Shown here one piece after another: positions 2,655 to 15,338 of a stretch of DNA of 15,338 bases (position 1 is its first letter; the number at the start of each line of letters is the position of its first letter). The notes below the pieces were generated by a model. It had not been told where the DNA came from. It saw only the letters and a program-made list of their open reading frames with translations, and ran no database searches. The stretch is from UHGV virus genome UHGV-1839376, one strand, 5' to 3'. The DNA is from a virus. A program made the translations under genes and the position numbers.

Positions 2655-3392
2655 ATGGCCACACCAAACCCGCTGACACCAACAAAAGGTGCTGGTACCA
2701 CCCTCTGGGTTTACACCGGAACCGGAGATCCATACGCCAATCCGCTTTCAGACGTTGATTGGCTGCGGCTGGCAAAGATTAAAGACCTGCAGCCTGGCGA
2801 ACTGACAGCTGAATCGGAAGATGACACCTACATTGATGATGAGAATGCTGACTGGACATCAACGATGCAGGGGCAGAAATCAGCCGGCGAAACCAACCTG
2901 ACGCTCGCGTGGATGCCGGGAGATTCCGGCCAGCAGGACCTGGTGACCTGGTTCGATGAGGGCACCGTGAGGGGATATAAAATCAAATACCCAAATGGTG
3001 TCGTCGATGTGTTTAAGGGCTGGGTGAGCAGCCTCGGTAAAACCATCACTTCCAAAGAGGTCATGACCCGCACGGCCAAAATCACCAACAACGGCAAACC
3101 ATCGCTGGCAGAAGACAGCGGTACCGCGCCGATTGCAGTCACGGGGATCAGCCTGGATAAATCCACTGCGGCTGTGGCGATTGCGGCCACAACGCAACTG
3201 GTGGTGTCTGTCCTGCCAGCAAGTGCGTCAGATAAATCCTTCCGCGTAGCCAGCTCTGATCCTTCAAAAGCAACGGTCACAGTCAACGGCAATACCCTGA
3301 CCGTCACCGGGGTAGCTGCGGGCACCGTCGAAATCATCGTCATGAGCAATGACGGTAACTTTGTGGCGATCTGCAAAGTCACTGTTTCCTGA
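2655..3392 (+). CDS. V: Major tail tube protein (lambda gpV-like) with C-terminal Ig-like (Big_2-type) domain
   Basis: [45 protein letters not shown] matches lambda V as recalled; C-terminal segment has Ig-like character. Confidence 0.9.
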
Positions 3393-9142: not shown

Positions 9143-12100
9143 ATGGCTAAAACAATTACCGGACGAAAAGGCGGGAGCTCCAGTTCCCGAACTCCCACCG
9201 AACAGCCTGATGATCTGCAATCTGTAGCGAAGGCAAAGATCCTCGTTGCGCTTGGGGAAGGGGAGTTTGCTGGACAGCTCACCGGGAAGGATATCTACCT
9301 GGACGGAACGGCGCTGGAGAACGCCGACGGCTCCCAAAACTTCAGCGGCGTTACGTGGGAATTTCGTCCGGGGACTCAGGCACAAAAATATATTCAGGGT
9401 ATCCCCGGCACCGAAAATGAAATCAGCGTGGGCACCGAAGTGTCAAGCACCACCGGCTGGACACATACCTTTACCAACACGCAACTGTCAGCCGTTCGCC
9501 TGCGCCTCAAGTGGCCATCGCTTTTTAAACAGGAGGATGATGGCGATCTGGTTGGCTATTCAATTAACTACGCTATTGATCTGCAGACCGATGGCGGCAC
9601 CTGGCAGACGGTACTTAATACCAGCGTAACCGGCAAGACAACTTCCGGCTACGAACGCAGCCATCGCATTGACCTACCGCAGGCAGGCAGCACATGGACG
9701 GTGCGCCTGCGTAAGCTAACGGCGGATGCCAACAGCGCGAAAATTGGTGACACGATGACGCTGCAGAGCTATACAGAGGTCATTGACGCCAAACTGCGTT
9801 ATCCAAATACCGCGCTGCTGTACATCGAATTCGACTCAAGCCAGTTTAACGGCTCTATCCCGCAAATATCCTGCGAACCGCGAGGGCGTGTAATCCGCGT
9901 TCCGGATACGTATGACCCGGAGACCCGCACCTATAGCGGCACATGGACGGGGGCGTTTAAGTGGGCGTGGACGGATAATCCAGCCTGGATTTTTTACGAT
10001 CTGGTGGTGAGCGACCGCTTTGGGCTGGGCAATCGCCTGACGGCGGCCAATATTGATAAATGGACGCTTTACCAGGTCGCGCAATATTGCGATCAGCCGG
10101 TTCCTGATGGTAAAGGCGGTAGCGGCACTGAGCCTCGCTATACCTGCAACGTGTATGTGCAGGAGAGGAATGACGCCTATACCGTGTTACGAGATTTTGC
10201 GGCGATATTCCGGGGCATGACTTACTGGGGTGGCGATCAAATCGTTGCGCTGGCGGATATGCCCCGCGATGTGGATTACAGCTACACGCGTGCAAACGTG
10301 GTTAATGGGCGCTTTACCTATTCGGGCAGCACCACGAAAACCCGCTATACCACAGCACTGGTTTCCTGGTCCGATCCGGGTAATGCCTACGCGGATGCGA
10401 TGGAGCCTGTATTTGAGCAGGATCTCGTTGCTCGCTTTGGCACAAATCAGCTCGAAATGACAGCCATTGGTTGTACCAGACAGTCAGAAGCGAACCGAAA
10501 GGGGCGCTGGGGTATTCTCACCAACAACAAGGATCGCGTTGTTTCGTTCGATGTCGGGCTGGACGGAAACATACCGCAGCCTGGCTATATCATCGCTGTG
10601 GCAGACGAGCTGCTTTCCGGAAAGGTTATGGGCGGACGCATCAGCGCCGTTAATGGTCGCGTTATCAAACTTGACCGTGTAGCTGATGCGGCAGCAGGTG
10701 ATCGCCTTATCCTCAACCTTCCCTCCGGAGCGTCACAGAGCAGGACAATTCAGGCGGTTAACGGGGAATCGGTCACAGTCACCACTGCATACAGTGAGAC
10801 GCCGCAGGCCGAAGCTGTCTGGGTGGTTGAGTCAAACGAACTGTACGCACAGCAGTACCGTGTTGTGAGCGTCACTGATAACGATGATGGCACTTTCACC
10901 ATTACCGGTGCATGGCACGATCCGGATAAATATGCCCGAATCGATACCGGAGCCATTATTGACCAGCGGCCGGTGAGCGTGATCCCGCCGGGCAATCAGT
11001 CACCGCCAGACAACATCGTAATCAGTTCGTTTTCGGTGGTGCAGCAGAATATCAGCGTCGAAACCATGCGCGTGAGCTGGGACCAGGCGCAGAATGCTAT
11101 CGCCTATGAAGCGCAATGGCGCCGCAACGACGGGAACTGGGTTAACGTGCCGCGCAGTTCCACCACGTCATTCGACGTTCCTGGGATTTATGCCGGGCGC
11201 TATCTGGTACGTGTACGCGCCATCAATGCCGCAGAAATTTCATCCGGGTGGGGATATTCGGAAGAGAAAACGCTGACGGGTAAAGTGGGCAATCCGCCGA
11301 AACCGGTCGGCTTCATCGCTTCCGATAATGTGGTATTCGGTATCGAGCTGAGCTGGGGATTCCCGGCGAACACCGACGACACGCTGAAGACGGAAATTCA
11401 GTACAGTCTGACTGGGACGGAAGACGATGCGATGCTGCTGGCAGACGTACCCTATCCGCAGCGCAAGTATCAGCAGATGGGCCTAAAGGCTGGGCAAATT
11501 TTCTGGTACCGCGCGCAGCTGGTGGACCGCAGCGGAAACGAATCAGGGTATACAGACTTTGTGCGCGGGCAGGCCAGCATCGATGTATCCGATATCACCG
11601 ATGCAATCCTGGAGGACATGAAAGGCTCCGATACGTTCAAAGACCTGATCGAGAACGCGGTAGACAGCAATGAAAAAATTGCTGGTATGGCTGACGACAT
11701 TAAACAGGCCAACGACGAACTGGCGCAACAGGCGCAGGATATCGCCAAAAACGCCCAGGATATCGGGAAGGTTCAGACCAGCGTTACAAACCTGTCGAGC
11801 ACGGTCGGAGATGTGTCTTCTTCTCTGAGCAAGCTTGAGCAGACAGTGGCGACGGCTGATACCGCGCTGAGCCAGCGCATCGATAACATCAGCGTGTCTG
11901 TGGACGGTATGACGGGTGGTGTAAAGAACTCGGCTATCGCTATAATCCAGAACGGGCTGGCACAGGTTACTTCCCGCCGCTCTCAAACCGTGACAAACGC
12001 GGGTAACAGCGCCAGCATTGACCGTATCGATACCACCATTGCAGATACCAGCCAGGCCGTTGCTCGCGCGCTGGTGACGCTTGATGCGTCTGCCGGTGGC

Positions 12101-12688
12101 AATGTTTCCAACTCCACCGACCTCACCGAAACGCTGGCTGATTTCACTCAGGCGTCGGCCACGAAAATCAACACGCTGACTGTTACCTCCGGAGAAAATA
12201 CTGCAGCCATTACGGTAAACGCAAAGGCCGTGGCTGATGTGAATAATAATCTCAGTGCGATGTACAACATTAAAGTGGGTGTCTCCAGCAACGGGCAGTA
12301 TTACGCTGCGGGGATGGGGATCGGCGTTGAGAATACGCCGTCCGGGATGCAGTCGCAGGTTATCTTCCTGGCTGACCGCTTCGCCGTCACCACGGCAGCA
12401 GGTAACAGCGTGGCTTTGCCGTTTGTGATCCAGAACGGGCAGACATTCATCCGGGCCAGTTTCATCCAGGACGGCACTATCAGCAACGCAAAGATTGGTA
12501 ATTTTATCCAGTCGAACAATTATGTTGCTGGTTCTGCTGGCTGGAAGCTTGATAAAGGGGGGACGTTTGAGAACTACGGTTCGACTGCTGGTGAGGGAGC
12601 CATGAAACTGACAAATCAGACGATCAGCGTCAAAGATGGCAGTAATGTTCTTAGGGTGCAGGTTGGCCGATTAACGGGAGTATTCTGA
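9143..12688 (+). CDS. J: Tail tip / central fibre host-specificity protein (lambda gpJ-like), with a C-terminal region unlike lambda J
   Basis: 1181 aa; blocks such as YTEVIDAKLRYPNTALLYIEFDSSQF and KWTLYQVAQYCDQPVPDG...TEPRYTCNVY match lambda J as recalled. The C-terminal part, from a coiled-coil-like region onward, differs from lambda J. Confidence 0.92.
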   Translation: MAKTITGRKGGSSSSRTPTEQPDDLQSVAKAKILVALGEGEFAGQLTGKDIYLDGTALENADGSQNFSGVTWEFRPGTQAQKYIQGIPGTENEISVGTEVSSTTGWTHTFTNTQLSAVRLRLKWPSLFKQEDDGDLVGYSINYAIDLQTDGGTWQTVLNTSVTGKTTSGYERSHRIDLPQAGSTWTVRLRKLTADANSAKIGDTMTLQSYTEVIDAKLRYPNTALLYIEFDSSQFNGSIPQISCEPRGRVIRVPDTYDPETRTYSGTWTGAFKWAWTDNPAWIFYDLVVSDRFGLGNRLTAANIDKWTLYQVAQYCDQPVPDGKGGSGTEPRYTCNVYVQERNDAYTVLRDFAAIFRGMTYWGGDQIVALADMPRDVDYSYTRANVVNGRFTYSGSTTKTRYTTALVSWSDPGNAYADAMEPVFEQDLVARFGTNQLEMTAIGCTRQSEANRKGRWGILTNNKDRVVSFDVGLDGNIPQPGYIIAVADELLSGKVMGGRISAVNGRVIKLDRVADAAAGDRLILNLPSGASQSRTIQAVNGESVTVTTAYSETPQAEAVWVVESNELYAQQYRVVSVTDNDDGTFTITGAWHDPDKYARIDTGAIIDQRPVSVIPPGNQSPPDNIVISSFSVVQQNISVETMRVSWDQAQNAIAYEAQWRRNDGNWVNVPRSSTTSFDVPGIYAGRYLVRVRAINAAEISSGWGYSEEKTLTGKVGNPPKPVGFIASDNVVFGIELSWGFPANTDDTLKTEIQYSLTGTEDDAMLLADVPYPQRKYQQMGLKAGQIFWYRAQLVDRSGNESGYTDFVRGQASIDVSDITDAILEDMKGSDTFKDLIENAVDSNEKIAGMADDIKQANDELAQQAQDIAKNAQDIGKVQTSVTNLSSTVGDVSSSLSKLEQTVATADTALSQRIDNISVSVDGMTGGVKNSAIAIIQNGLAQVTSRRSQTVTNAGNSASIDRIDTTIADTSQAVARALVTLDASAGGNVSNSTDLTETLADFTQASATKINTLTVTSGENTAAITVNAKAVADVNNNLSAMYNIKVGVSSNGQYYAAGMGIGVENTPSGMQSQVIFLADRFAVTTAAGNSVALPFVIQNGQTFIRASFIQDGTISNAKIGNFIQSNNYVAGSAGWKLDKGGTFENYGSTAGEGAMKLTNQTISVKDGSNVLRVQVGRLTGVF

Positions 12689-12689
12689 A

Positions 12690-12992
12690 ATGGCTTATGG
12701 AATACAGACCTGGGATGCTTCAGGAAAACCCAACAACTATGGCATCAAACCCGTTTCCGTCGTTGGGCGAATACAGCTGGCTGCCGGGCAAACCTCCGGC
12801 AGCTGGTCTTTTACGGTGCCCTCAGGAATGAAAGTTGGTTTTGTTCTTTCACTTGATGAAGGAGGTAACAGCGTAGGGCGGCGCATTGTCGCGTCAGGGA
12901 GCACAATAACCGTAAGCGCTGCATCTTCTGTAGGTCTGGGTAATTATCCGGCCTCAAAGTGTGAAGTGGTCGTTTTCATGGAGAAAGCATAA
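12690..12992 (+). CDS. Hypothetical protein (100 aa), first gene of the J-distal cassette; function unknown
   Basis: ATG 2 nt after the J stop, GGGAG RBS 9 nt upstream; stop overlaps the next start (TAATG). No recognisable catalytic motif. Confidence 0.7.
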   Translation: MAYGIQTWDASGKPNNYGIKPVSVVGRIQLAAGQTSGSWSFTVPSGMKVGFVLSLDEGGNSVGRRIVASGSTITVSAASSVGLGNYPASKCEVVVFMEKA

Positions 12993-13666
12993 TGGCCGAA
13001 TTTGGCGCGATGATATTAATGGACAACGGGAACCCATTTGTAACGCCCCAGTCAACGCCTTTTTGTCTTTACGGCAAGTACACTTTCAACTCCTCTGCTA
13101 ATGGCAGTTCGCAGCAGGTTGCTCAGAATATTGCATTAAATGCTGACTACCCTGTGATGGTATTTATCAGGACCACAAATACCGCCCAGCCCACGCCAGT
13201 AATATCTTACCGGAACGGAGGAAATGTATATGTCGCGGGGGTTAATCCCTATAACCAGAGCTTCACGTTAACCGCATATATATTTGCCATATTTCCCCAG
13301 ACGTTACCGAAATGGGGGATGGCCATCTGGGATGCGGCAGGAAAGCTGGTGCTCACTAATGAGTCCCGGGTGTTGTCCGACCTACAGACAATTGGAACGC
13401 CTGGCGCAAACGGAGGGATAAATATCGATCAGACACTTAGCGGGCCATGGGCTGTTGCACCTGCACAGCTTGGCCAAAGCATCGTTGTGAATAACTCAAC
13501 CCAGCCTCCGACAATCTACACCATTAATGCTTATTCGGCGTGCAGGTTTGACGGGGCCAATACGAGGATAAACGCAGGGGGGTCCTCCACTGGCACAGGC
13601 TCTCCGGGGGGGCTAACGAAGGCTGGCATTTCCTTAACCGCGATAAATACAGCGGCCTATGACTGA
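12992..13666 (+). CDS. Hypothetical protein (224 aa), second gene of the J-distal cassette; appears to hold two copies of the domain found in the preceding protein
   Basis: Translationally coupled to the upstream ORF; GGAG RBS. Internal segment KWGMAIWDAAGK resembles the N-terminus MAYGIQTWDASGK of the preceding protein, and the underlying DNA is also similar (16 of 19 nt). Confidence 0.7.
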   Translation: MAEFGAMILMDNGNPFVTPQSTPFCLYGKYTFNSSANGSSQQVAQNIALNADYPVMVFIRTTNTAQPTPVISYRNGGNVYVAGVNPYNQSFTLTAYIFAIFPQTLPKWGMAIWDAAGKLVLTNESRVLSDLQTIGTPGANGGINIDQTLSGPWAVAPAQLGQSIVVNNSTQPPTIYTINAYSACRFDGANTRINAGGSSTGTGSPGGLTKAGISLTAINTAAYD

Positions 13667-13718
13667 TTGATCGTTTTGGGCGATCAATAACTGATAATTG
13701 ATCTATCAAATCAATTAT
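13666..13718 (+). promoter_or_regulatory. Intergenic inverted-repeat cluster: 8-bp stem hairpin (13666-13688) and perfect 9-bp inverted repeat ATAATTGAT-N7-ATCAATTAT (13694-13718); candidate operator/regulatory region upstream of the lipoprotein gene
   Basis: Repeats read directly from the sequence; TTGAT/ATCAA half-sites recur at least five times within 55 bp. No confident -35/-10 pair identified. Confidence 0.4.
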
Positions 13719-13777
13719 ACCCACCTCTTTCATGTTGGTATTGTCTAAGTTCATGAATACCTCTGGATATCATCAAA

Positions 13778-14011
13778 ATGATTAAGCTTCTTATCGGTAT
13801 GGCTTGCGCTGCCATGCTTTCAGGTTGCGCTGGTGTACTTGAGAAACAGGAACCGATTTGCAGCGGCACGGCATATATGGGTGGCCATGAGAATACCGTT
13901 ATGATTTACGCCGTTCGAAAGCAAAACAACCAGACGCAATACCGGGCCGGATATCCCTTTAACTGGCGCTGGGTAAGTGCGAACACATTCACAAGCACGA
14001 CATGTAAATAA
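13778..14011 (+). CDS. cor: Small outer-membrane lipoprotein, Cor/Llp-like (putative receptor-blocking superinfection exclusion protein)
   Basis: 77 aa; signal peptide with lipobox LSGC (MIKLLIGMACAAMLSGC); two further Cys (ICSGTAYMGGH and C-terminal TTCK) in a pattern reminiscent of T5 Llp as recalled. Lies between J and the tail fibre gene. Weak RBS. Confidence 0.6.
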   Translation: MIKLLIGMACAAMLSGCAGVLEKQEPICSGTAYMGGHENTVMIYAVRKQNNQTQYRAGYPFNWRWVSANTFTSTTCK

Positions 14012-14031
14012 CTCATGACTTTCAATGCAAA

Positions 14032-14053
14032 CCTCGCCTCGGCGGGGTTTTTT
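14032..14053 (+). terminator. Rho-independent terminator after the lipoprotein gene (stem CCTCGC/GCGGGG with one G-U pair, CTCG loop, 6-T run)
   Basis: Read directly from the sequence, 21 nt after the TAA stop at 14009-14011. Confidence 0.55.
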
Positions 14054-14069
14054 ATTGCCTGGAGAAAAT

Positions 14070-15338
14070 ATGCTTTATAACACAGGAACTATCTCTATTA
14101 ACGGAAATACCGCAACCGGATCCGGTACAAACTGGACTGCACCGGCCAGCCAGGTTCGCGCTGGCCAGACGATTATTGTCATGTCTAACCCGGTTCAGAT
14201 GTTCCAGATTTCATCCGTGAATAGCGCCACGTCAATGACGGTAACGCCTGCTGCATCACCGGCGCTGAGCGGCCAGAAGTACGGCATTCTGGTATCAGAC
14301 AATATCTCGGTTGATGGACTGGCACAGGCTATGTCGCAGCTCATCAAAGAGTACGACGAGAACATTGGCGCGTGGGAGGCGTTCGCCACCACATCAGCAA
14401 ACCAGAGCATCACCGTCACCATAAACGGCACCCCTGTTACGATCCCCGGCATCGGTAAACTGGCGCAGAAAGGGAGCAACGGTGCGCTTGCTGTTGCAGA
14501 CGGCGGGACCGGGGCAACGACTGCAGCAGCCGCTCGATCAAGCCTCGGTTTGGGAAGTAGTGCAATCCTCAATGTAGGTAATGCTGCAGGCAATGTCATC
14601 ACACGAGGAAGCGGCATATCAGCAAGCTACTCTGATGTAAACCTTGTGCTCTTTATGAAGAGCATTGGATCTGGATGGTATCGAAATTTGCTGGCCGGGA
14701 TAGGCATGTACCAATATTCAGCAGGATTTTATTCGTATACTGGTGATACGCATGCCTATATCCAGGTTGACTATGCTACCGGGAATGTCAGAGCTCTAGG
14801 GACGGGAGATAATCTGTTAGCGGACGGTATAGTAAAAATCAACACGCTATATGGAACAGTAAATACAACAAAATCCAGCGATGGCACCATTAAAGCAGCA
14901 TCACCAGTGGCCCGTATTGTGACGAGTCGTGACGTATGCCAGCGAGCTGATATAGCGGAGGATGGTTTCTCCTGGTGCGGCTGTGGAACGGCTAACCCTG
15001 AAGCAGAGGGAGTAACCCTTTCTCGCCTCGATGTTGGGATTTACATGCTAACCGGCTCGGCTGGCTTGGCGTCAGATGGATGGCAACTGCTGCCCCCAAT
15101 GGACCCTGGCGGCATGGGAGAGTTGGGAGTGGTTGAGGCAGAGCAAACCGATAGCGGCGAGCTGACAATCCGTCTTTTCAAGCGAAAATATATCCTGAGC
15201 GATGAAGGTGAGGTCATCAAAACCAAAGGTGAACCGATTGACGTCCCGGCGAACAGCTGGATCGATGTTCGTCTGGATATGCCAGTGGATAGCATCTGGA
15301 ACCCCAAAGTTTCCGGTTCTTCTCTCGAACTCCAGTGA
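14070..15338 (+). CDS. Side tail fibre protein (422 aa) with conserved N-terminal region and variable C-terminal domain
   Basis: GGAG RBS 5 nt before ATG 14070. The motif GALAVADGGTGATTAAAARSSLGLGS is typical of phage tail fibre proteins. The ORF-track start at 14025 would run through the terminator hairpin. Stop TGA at 15336-15338 coincides with the window end. Confidence 0.8.
   Translation: MLYNTGTISINGNTATGSGTNWTAPASQVRAGQTIIVMSNPVQMFQISSVNSATSMTVTPAASPALSGQKYGILVSDNISVDGLAQAMSQLIKEYDENIGAWEAFATTSANQSITVTINGTPVTIPGIGKLAQKGSNGALAVADGGTGATTAAAARSSLGLGSSAILNVGNAAGNVITRGSGISASYSDVNLVLFMKSIGSGWYRNLLAGIGMYQYSAGFYSYTGDTHAYIQVDYATGNVRALGTGDNLLADGIVKINTLYGTVNTTKSSDGTIKAASPVARIVTSRDVCQRADIAEDGFSWCGCGTANPEAEGVTLSRLDVGIYMLTGSAGLASDGWQLLPPMDPGGMGELGVVEAEQTDSGELTIRLFKRKYILSDEGEVIKTKGEPIDVPANSWIDVRLDMPVDSIWNPKVSGSSLELQ

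Follow-up and report, generated by a model that had tools for sequence, protein, structure and literature searches.

What do the two small genes directly downstream of the fibre gene J do in phi80-type phages? This question is raised by the virus genome UHGV-1839376 (15,338 nucleotides, referred to here as the window), in which two overlapping open reading frames (ORFs) follow J and precede the genes for the lipoprotein Cor and the side tail fibre. DNA comparison places the window in the tail-gene region of a phi80-type lambdoid phage; positions 12400-14100 share 95.2% identity with phi80 and 99.4% with Escherichia phage Phi06_2987 S. By sequence comparison, the two ORFs are phi80 genes 22 and 23, members of a known family and not new biology. 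We propose, at a probability of about 0.7, that their products form a cap at the tail tip of the virion, with gp22 as the J-proximal adaptor, gp23 as the binder of the receptor (FhuA), and Cor as the exclusion partner. The proposal is built on what this analysis observed: the identity of the genes, the layout of the operon, the fold, co-variation with the J C terminus, and a conservation gradient.

The phi80 record (FN582354) holds genes 22 and 23 with lengths equal to those of the window ORFs. The gp22 sequence equals that of the deposited phi80 gene 22 and of HK022-group and mEp copies (100% identity), and gp23 is 97% identical to the Phi06_2987 S allele and 92% identical to that of HK140. 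Both match known families along their lengths (gp22, PHROG 557, E value of 2.4e-36 over residues 1-99/100; gp23, PHROG 425, E value of 3.8e-80 over 1-224/224). An earlier description of this DNA, made from the letters alone (the sequence-only reading), had called the cassette uncharacterised, a label that these matches and the published family overturn. Homologues were found in T1, N15, phi80, JLBYU60/37, and Teewinot; gp22 is 76% identical to N15 gp22, and the gp22/gp23 identities are 56/50% to T1 and 70/57% to the JLBYU60 group. Among INPHARED records, gp22 occurs in 346 and gp23 in 350, with an identical taxon breakdown (lambdoid phages, N15, Dhillonvirus, T1-like Drexlerviridae, and Klebsiella Webervirus). 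In T1, N15, JLBYU60, Klebsiella phage Alina, and Aeromonas phage pAEv1818, J is likewise followed by a small gene and then by a larger one that overlaps it, so that the synteny comparison which the sequence-only reading had proposed for the J-distal regions of N15, phi80, and T1 reveals a conserved gene order.

Outside these families, searches of Pfam and NCBIfam with gp22 and gp23 returned only noise (best, Tailspike_C at an E value of 0.015 and DUF6201 at 0.2), and single-sequence and profile searches of the PDB found no relative (Sf6/P22 tailspike C-domain and CBM77 matches at E values of >0.2). A gp22-profile hidden Markov model search of 1.8 billion representatives gave about 55 clusters of stand-alone proteins of about 100 amino acids (aa), together with giant repetitive proteins that are probably driven by composition or immunoglobulin (Ig) repeats. 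This search gave no J-gp22 fusions, hence no Rosetta-stone evidence, and no gp23-like proteins, leaving the two families unconnected. Homologues also occur in records MG065687, MG065637, and MG065688 ("Campylobacter phage" A136, A15b, and A110b) and ON843697 ("Pseudomonas phage Motto"), at 46 to 72% identity to the coliphage proteins, which is the level of T1-like coliphages; the host labels of these records look questionable, and contaminating enterobacterial phages are another possibility.

The layout of the operon joins the cassette to J. The gp22 stop and gp23 start overlap in TAATG (12990-12994), and each gene has a GGAG-type Shine-Dalgarno sequence 9 to 10 nucleotides (nt) 5' of its start codon; the coordinates and this overlap agree with the earlier account of coupled ORFs of 100 and 224 aa between J and the lipoprotein and tail-fibre genes. 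No terminator-like site lies from J through the end of gp23, and the earliest one comes after cor. GC content is 0.505 in gp22 and 0.510 in gp23, compared with 0.548 in J, 0.551 in the upstream tail genes, and 0.53 at the J 3' end. The reported drop in GC therefore exists (0.51 versus 0.55), but it is smaller than the 45-50 versus 55-62% that had been claimed. Together with the adjoining cor moron, a GC content slightly below that of the tail genes would be in keeping with the suggestion that the cassette is itself a moron, acquired horizontally and acting on the host in a role that has nothing to do with the tail. However, low GC that runs into the J 3' end is expected of an exchangeable specificity module, the cassette has neither its own promoter nor its own terminator, its translation is coupled to that of J, and it is in strict synteny with J in at least five phage lineages and in tailocins. 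We regard a moron with a host-directed role as extremely unlikely.

AlphaFold2 (AF2) models predict that both proteins consist of β-sandwiches. In gp22, an N-terminal hairpin is followed by seven strands (predicted local distance difference test score [pLDDT], 82); gp23 is modelled as two β-sandwich domains (pLDDT, 90; predicted template modelling score, 0.85). A fold search with gp23 matched a solved complex of a receptor-binding protein (RBP) with its receptor, PDB 9rpt, released in December 2025. The family concerned, DUF6453 (PF20051), comprises Rtp44 and the Oekolampad RBP, solved bound to LptDE (PMC12685063), and gp23 has the same fold as these RBPs. The best fold matches of the gp22 model are H-type lectins. 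In a Foldseek search of BFVD, this model gave weak matches (best E value, 2.7e-3), some of them to Pseudomonas phage proteins of about 100 aa, and no convincing match to gp23-type proteins.

A conservation gradient runs through the cassette, gp22 being more conserved than gp23 in every comparison. The HK022/mEp235-type gp23 allele is 100% identical to that of the window over aa 1-113 and 25 to 55% identical over aa 161-220, with a 12-aa deletion; gp22 is 100% identical between phi80-type and HK022-type carriers that differ in gp23. Because divergence begins beyond residue 113, the variable surface of gp23 lies in the body of its C-terminal domain, in agreement with the entropy profile of gp23, and this body (aa ~150-220) is the probable site of receptor contact. 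The comparison with HK022/mEp235-type alleles also reveals a sharp mosaic boundary within gp23, downstream of a 100% identical gp22; the position of this boundary indicates recombination within the C-terminal domain and not at the gene borders.

The gradient also bears on which of the two proteins would contact the receptor. gp22 could instead form a homotrimeric terminal domain similar to that of lambda J and be the true receptor binder, in which case gp23 would be an accessory or trigger present in one copy. The small gp22 sandwich is Ig-like or lectin-like, its best fold matches are H-type lectins, and H-type lectins trimerise. A gp22-like trimer on the spike has been modelled with acceptable scores by Matusiak et al., yet in the same study AF2-Multimer favoured the gp23-like protein as the spike end and gave it the best FhuA model (PMC12309495). 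The more conserved gp22, identical across phi80- and HK022-type alleles that differ in gp23, and the LptD-type locus, which consists of one three-domain chain without gp22, likewise speak against this arrangement, which we consider quite improbable. The match of gp23 to an RBP fold, together with the conservation gradient, makes receptor binding the best-supported predicted function of the cassette, in line with the guess of the sequence-only reading that it might be a distal-tail or receptor-binding accessory.

The J C terminus co-varies with the gp22/gp23 cassette. The last 60 residues of J are 75% identical to those of T1, 73% to those of N15, and 59% to those of JLBYU60; the respective values for the preceding 100 residues are 38, 44, and 31%. 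J of Rtp, a phage with a different, LptD-type RBP downstream, diverges over the last ~35 residues. This pattern matches that of "Specificity Module 1" of F-pyocins (Saha et al., bioRxiv 10.1101/2021.02.16.431561). The whole of J matches the solved F2-pyocin central fibre with 1047 bits and T1 gp33 with 977 bits, while its match to the lambda_TipJ profile stops at position 958/1163, and a lambda-type C-terminal domain is absent. The equal job at the equal tail position is done in lambda by a receptor-binding domain within the J polypeptide; in the window, binding is apparently delegated to separate genes.

Pyocins offer the closest parallel in terms of architecture. The PyoF11/PyoF12 pair is found invariably after the central fibre gene of F-type pyocins and of many phages, and both proteins are essential for killing (Saha et al., bioRxiv 10.1101/2021.02.16.431561; the alignment includes T1 and N15). 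Proteins of this type were detected in particles by mass spectrometry, with cryo-electron tomography density at the fibre end, and AlphaFold3 models seat the pair at the fibre C terminus (He et al., PMC12874032). Gu et al. report an identical one-plus-two Ig-like architecture for pyocin homologues (PMC13455828). The window pair is alike in its position directly 3' of a J-like central fibre gene, in its co-variation with the J tip, and in its one plus two β-sandwich domains; by analogy with the pyocin homologues, it would be present in the particle and essential for infection in the way that the pyocin pair is for killing. The pyocin pair, in contrast, is thought to recognise lipopolysaccharide or other Pseudomonas surface features and has no cor partner, whereas the window pair belongs to a temperate coliphage, has Cor as its partner, and correlates with FhuA.

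These homologues also inform a second alternative, in which gp22 and gp23 serve as chaperones for folding of the J fibre tip during assembly and are not kept in the particle, and J itself binds FhuA. A place right after the fibre gene recalls tail-fibre chaperones, Saha et al. raised this possibility, Lewis et al. took J as the RBP (PMC10373560), and the J C terminus is conserved among FhuA phages. Against this, the pyocin homologues are found in particles, with density at the fibre end (PMC12874032), gp23 has a bona fide RBP fold, and the fastest-evolving, mosaic part is the C-domain of gp23 and not the tip of J, as expected of a receptor-contact surface. A chaperone role is therefore unlikely in our judgement.

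Two further features of J were observed. Residues ~815-1030 (11585-12232) form a long coiled-coil-like segment with matches to SMC-, EnvC-, and BLOC1_2-type profiles. The equivalent segment of the F7 pyocin changes from a coiled coil to a β-prism upon receptor binding (PMC12874032), and J of the window is, by analogy, a candidate for a similar fold switch. At its C-terminal end, TNQTISVKDGSNVLRVQVG (12610-12685, residues ~1157-1181), J has an I-x4-G-x2-V-L spacing which, judged by eye, is like that of the domain-initial hairpins of gp22 and gp23; this likeness hints at like-with-like packing of β-hairpins between J and the cap.

The assignment of FhuA as the receptor follows the literature on related loci. 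For Drexlerviridae and Dhillonvirus, Maffei et al. described a FhuA-type "bona fide RBP locus" downstream of gpJ (PMC8594841), and this work and a 2026 preprint of the Mutalik group showed that in Drexlerviridae and relatives the post-gpJ locus predicts the terminal receptor, one family being FhuA specific (PMC8594841; bioRxiv 10.64898/2026.04.02.716166). Phages that carry homologues depend on FhuA (PMC10373560, PMC13164509): the cassette is common to T1, HK022, N15, ES18, and phi80, and 10/10 cassette-bearing Drexlerviridae/Dhillonvirus phages of the BASEL collection use this receptor (PMC13164509). Matusiak et al. modelled the JLBYU60 homologues as an "Ig-like" and a "hand-like" spike cap, with the best FhuA interface in the hand-like protein (PMC12309495). 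The window pair shares with this type of locus its place 3' of gpJ, an adjoining cor, and homology to alleles of FhuA-dependent phages; relative to T1 ST32/ST31 and JLBYU60 gp25/gp26, gene order, the stop/start overlap, and the adjoining Cor-type lipoprotein are also alike. The differences are that the window derives from a temperate lambdoid phage of the phi80/HK022 type and that its cor lies on the same strand with its own promoter, whereas cor is on the opposite strand in T1 and JLBYU60. T5 provides a functional parallel, as FhuA is bound by a separately encoded monomeric RBP (pb5) that sits on a trimeric central fibre and is blocked by a cognate periplasmic lipoprotein, Llp (PMC9586334). 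pb5 belongs to an unrelated family, however, and is absent from the sequence matches and from the fold matches listed; moreover, infection by T5 is TonB independent, while phi80 and T1 are TonB dependent (PMC10373560).

The association with cor has led to a different view in the KanT1 paper, which reported no structural hits and considered both proteins to be membrane parts of a Cor exclusion cassette (PMC13164509). According to this explanation, gp22 and gp23 are accessories of Cor in the envelope of the infected cell and not components of the virion. It draws on the adjoining cor gene in phi80, T1, N15, JLBYU60, and pAEv1818 and on the correlation of the cassette with FhuA use (PMC13164509). 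Neither protein, however, has a signal peptide, a lipobox, or a transmembrane or hydrophobic segment, as the sequence-only reading had already noted for signal peptides and transmembrane segments: the N termini lack a basic residue or hydrophobic core, the maximum Kyte-Doolittle score in a 19-residue window is 1.27 for gp22 and 0.84 for gp23 (1.83 for Cor), and the models are soluble β-sandwiches, not a transmembrane helix or β-barrel. The pair is coupled to J and not to cor, which has its own promoter (phi80) or lies on the opposite strand (T1, JLBYU60). In Klebsiella phage Alina, the pair is present with no room for an adjoining cor, which speaks against a dedicated exclusion role, and in F-pyocins the pair is needed for killing (bioRxiv 10.1101/2021.02.16.431561). 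Finally, the gp23 fold agrees with that of a solved virion RBP, PDB 9rpt (released in December 2025), an entry that did not come up in the structural searches of PMC13164509. We therefore hold a membrane-located exclusion role to be very unlikely.

Together, these results are consistent with the following model of the tail-tip cap. gp22 and gp23 would be expressed late from the tail operon in translational coupling with J and would bind non-covalently to the C-terminal ~60 residues of the J trimer, probably through the conserved N-terminal β-hairpins of their three β-sandwich domains. The conserved one-domain gp22 would act as the J-proximal adaptor, and the faster-evolving gp23 would contact the outer-membrane receptor, FhuA in this lineage, via its variable C-domain body; contact of gp23 with FhuA, docking by hairpins, and the stoichiometry of the cap are what we infer. 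Receptor binding would then trigger rearrangement of J and the tail tip, leading to DNA ejection. Cor, made from its own promoter, would block FhuA from the periplasmic side in lysogens and infected cells, so that recognition and exclusion would travel jointly as one exchangeable specificity module.

Several points weigh against this model. No published experiment shows phi80-type gp22 or gp23 in virions or bound to FhuA, and contact between a product of these genes and FhuA appears in publications only as AlphaFold-based models (PMC12309495; bioRxiv 10.64898/2026.04.02.716166). Proteins of these types are unresolved in cryo-electron microscopy of T1 and F-pyocins (PMC11945409, PMC12874032, PMC13455828), and the published models of the complex are modest in confidence and split between a gp22 trimer and a single copy (PMC12309495). 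The tie to Pseudomonas PyoF11/PyoF12 is indirect, running via the N15 and T1 members of the published alignment. Sequence similarity to DUF6453 is not significant, so it is the fold that links gp23 to this family.

The proposed docking elements correspond to a motif shared by the two proteins, YGIQTWDASGK at gp22 residues 3-13 and WGMAIWDAAGK at gp23 residues 108-118 (BLASTP E value, 0.016). The sequence-only reading had reported this motif with matching DNA, and both are present: the 20-nt pattern CTGGGATGCNNCAGGAAANC occurs exactly twice, at 12710 and 13327, with 0 occurrences expected (200 shuffles). Recent gene conversion was considered for the 17/20 DNA identity of the two copies and rejected, as the flanking DNA is unrelated and the similarity is limited to seven codons, including one for Trp, an amino acid with a single codon. 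Among gp22 relatives (~55 clusters, with identities as low as ~27%), conservation is highest in the N-terminal 20 residues, and the motif segment with its preceding linker is the most conserved block of gp23, in which G109, W113, D114, and G117 are invariant or nearly so. In the AF2 models, the motif forms a short N-terminal β-hairpin in all three units. Both chain-initial copies (gp22 and the gp23 N-domain) are of low confidence in the isolated chain, and the low score of the gp22 hairpin in the monomer (pLDDT, 46 to 55) would fit an element that is ordered only within the complex.

Similarity extends past the motif. Profile alignment (hhalign) of gp22 with the C-terminal half of gp23 covers 77 to 82 columns at a probability of 86% and a P of about 5e-6, which supports the shared motif over a longer region. 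The N terminus of gp23, which had been read as a diverged copy, aligns in register with gp22 (residues 1-98 of each), although the signal is weak (P of 0.02, improving to 6.5e-4 with deeper profiles); the two halves of gp23 align with a P of 0.008. Three related domains divided one plus two over the two genes, as the sequence-only reading had suggested, are therefore well supported for gp22 and the gp23 C-half and plausible, or suggestive, for the gp23 N-half.

A three-domain composition is also found in the DUF6453 RBPs. Rtp44 (311 aa, close to the 324 aa of gp22 plus gp23) has three units, each opening with G-I-x-[IV]-x-[DN], at residues 4, 115, and 209; its third unit starts with PGINIFNSNNQC, and the C-domain of a distant Aeromonas phage relative of gp23 starts with FGINIFDAQGRC. 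DUF6453 had no Pfam match in gp23 at an E value of ≤1 and no match in a PDB profile search, and hhalign of gp23 with the Rtp44 family was not significant (probability, 9 to 17%; P, 0.0015 to 0.004). This comparison gave two weak alternative alignments exactly one domain apart (P of 0.0015 and 0.01), and single domains aligned weakly with the three Rtp44 units (P, 0.001 to 0.4), mostly in register. Unlike gp22/gp23, the DUF6453 RBPs are single three-domain chains whose genes lie on the opposite strand and lack a gp22-like partner, and their receptor is LptD; in a solved homologue, the C-terminal residue Gln299 touches an extracellular loop of LptD (PMC12685063).

A tentative proposal, which we favour less than its absence, is that gp22, gp23-N, and gp23-C are diverged paralogues, that a gp22:gp23 heterodimer forms a pseudo-threefold knob with each hairpin on one J chain, and that DUF6453 represents the fused form. 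Such a knob may be a split, symmetry-broken version of a homotrimeric tip knob that presents one asymmetric face to a monomeric receptor. An ancestral three-domain, pseudo-threefold cap, divided between two genes in the FhuA type and joined in one chain in the LptD type, is a speculative extension of the weak sequence signals and one fold match.

The features of the locus are collected in Table 1.

Table 1. Features of the J-cor region in the window
Feature	Coordinates	Strand	Description
Last 60 J codons and stop	12506..12688	+	Proposed docking site for gp22/gp23
J stop (TGA)	12686-12688	+	gp22 ATG at 12690, one base on
ORF1, gp22	12690..12992	+	100 aa; one-domain β-sandwich; PHROG 557; PyoF11-like; proposed J-proximal adaptor
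gp22 N-terminal hairpin motif	12690..12749	+	M-x-[WYF]-G-[IVF]-x-T-W-D-x-x-G-x-x-N-N-x-G-I; lowest entropy in family alignment
ORF2, gp23	12992..13666	+	224 aa; two-domain all-β; PHROG 425; PyoF12-like; proposed receptor-binding protein
gp23 N-terminal domain	12992..13300	+	aa 1-103; diverged hairpin FGAMILMDNGNPFVTP first, then 7 strands
gp23 C-terminal domain	13301..13663	+	aa 104-224; opens with WGMAIWDAAGKLVLTNESRV hairpin
cor	13778..14011	+	FhuA-blocking superinfection-exclusion lipoprotein; NF047972, E value 6e-40; PHROG 1119, E value 3e-34; lipobox LSGC
Intrinsic terminator after cor	14029..14058	+	Annotated in the same place in phi80

Downstream of gp23, the order is cor and then the side tail fibre gene, and a separate cor promoter is annotated in the phi80 record. 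The gap between gp23 and cor contains three nested or overlapping inverted repeats (13658-13718), including a perfect 9-nt palindrome pair, ATAATTGAT/ATCAATTAT, at 13694-13702 and 13710-13718; they sit just upstream of, or across, the -35 element of the phi80-annotated cor promoter. The repeats are not followed by a T-run, as a typical terminator would be, and could instead serve as an operator or an RNA element. The longest ORF of the side tail fibre opens at 14025, within the stem of the cor terminator. Since its PHROG match begins at residue 15 and an ATG at 14070 is preceded by a GGAGAA Shine-Dalgarno sequence, the true start is probably 14070. In Aeromonas phage pAEv1818 (OL964755), an unannotated ORF homologous to Cor (…LLVSASITGCVGVLEKQEPICYGT…RAGGPFGWRWVS…) follows the gp23-like gene (positions 2740-3018 of our stretch L007); with this homologue in the gap, pAEv1818 was dropped as a candidate cor-free carrier.

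The pair in the window adds no new biology in itself; what the fold match to a solved RBP-receptor complex and the conservation gradient do is back the receptor-binding reading of a known family. Experimental demonstration of the FhuA-binding protein is still awaited in the literature for the classic model phages phi80, T1, HK022, and N15. Public annotation, in which gp22 and gp23 are labelled "outer membrane" or "membrane associated," is misleading, and a 2026 paper still places them under superinfection exclusion. Residues ~150-220 of gp23 stand out as the likely site at which host range could be engineered or swapped. If the three-domain proposal is true, the J-distal RBP families that have been termed "unrelated" would belong to a single superfamily whose diversity arose through fission and fusion of genes.

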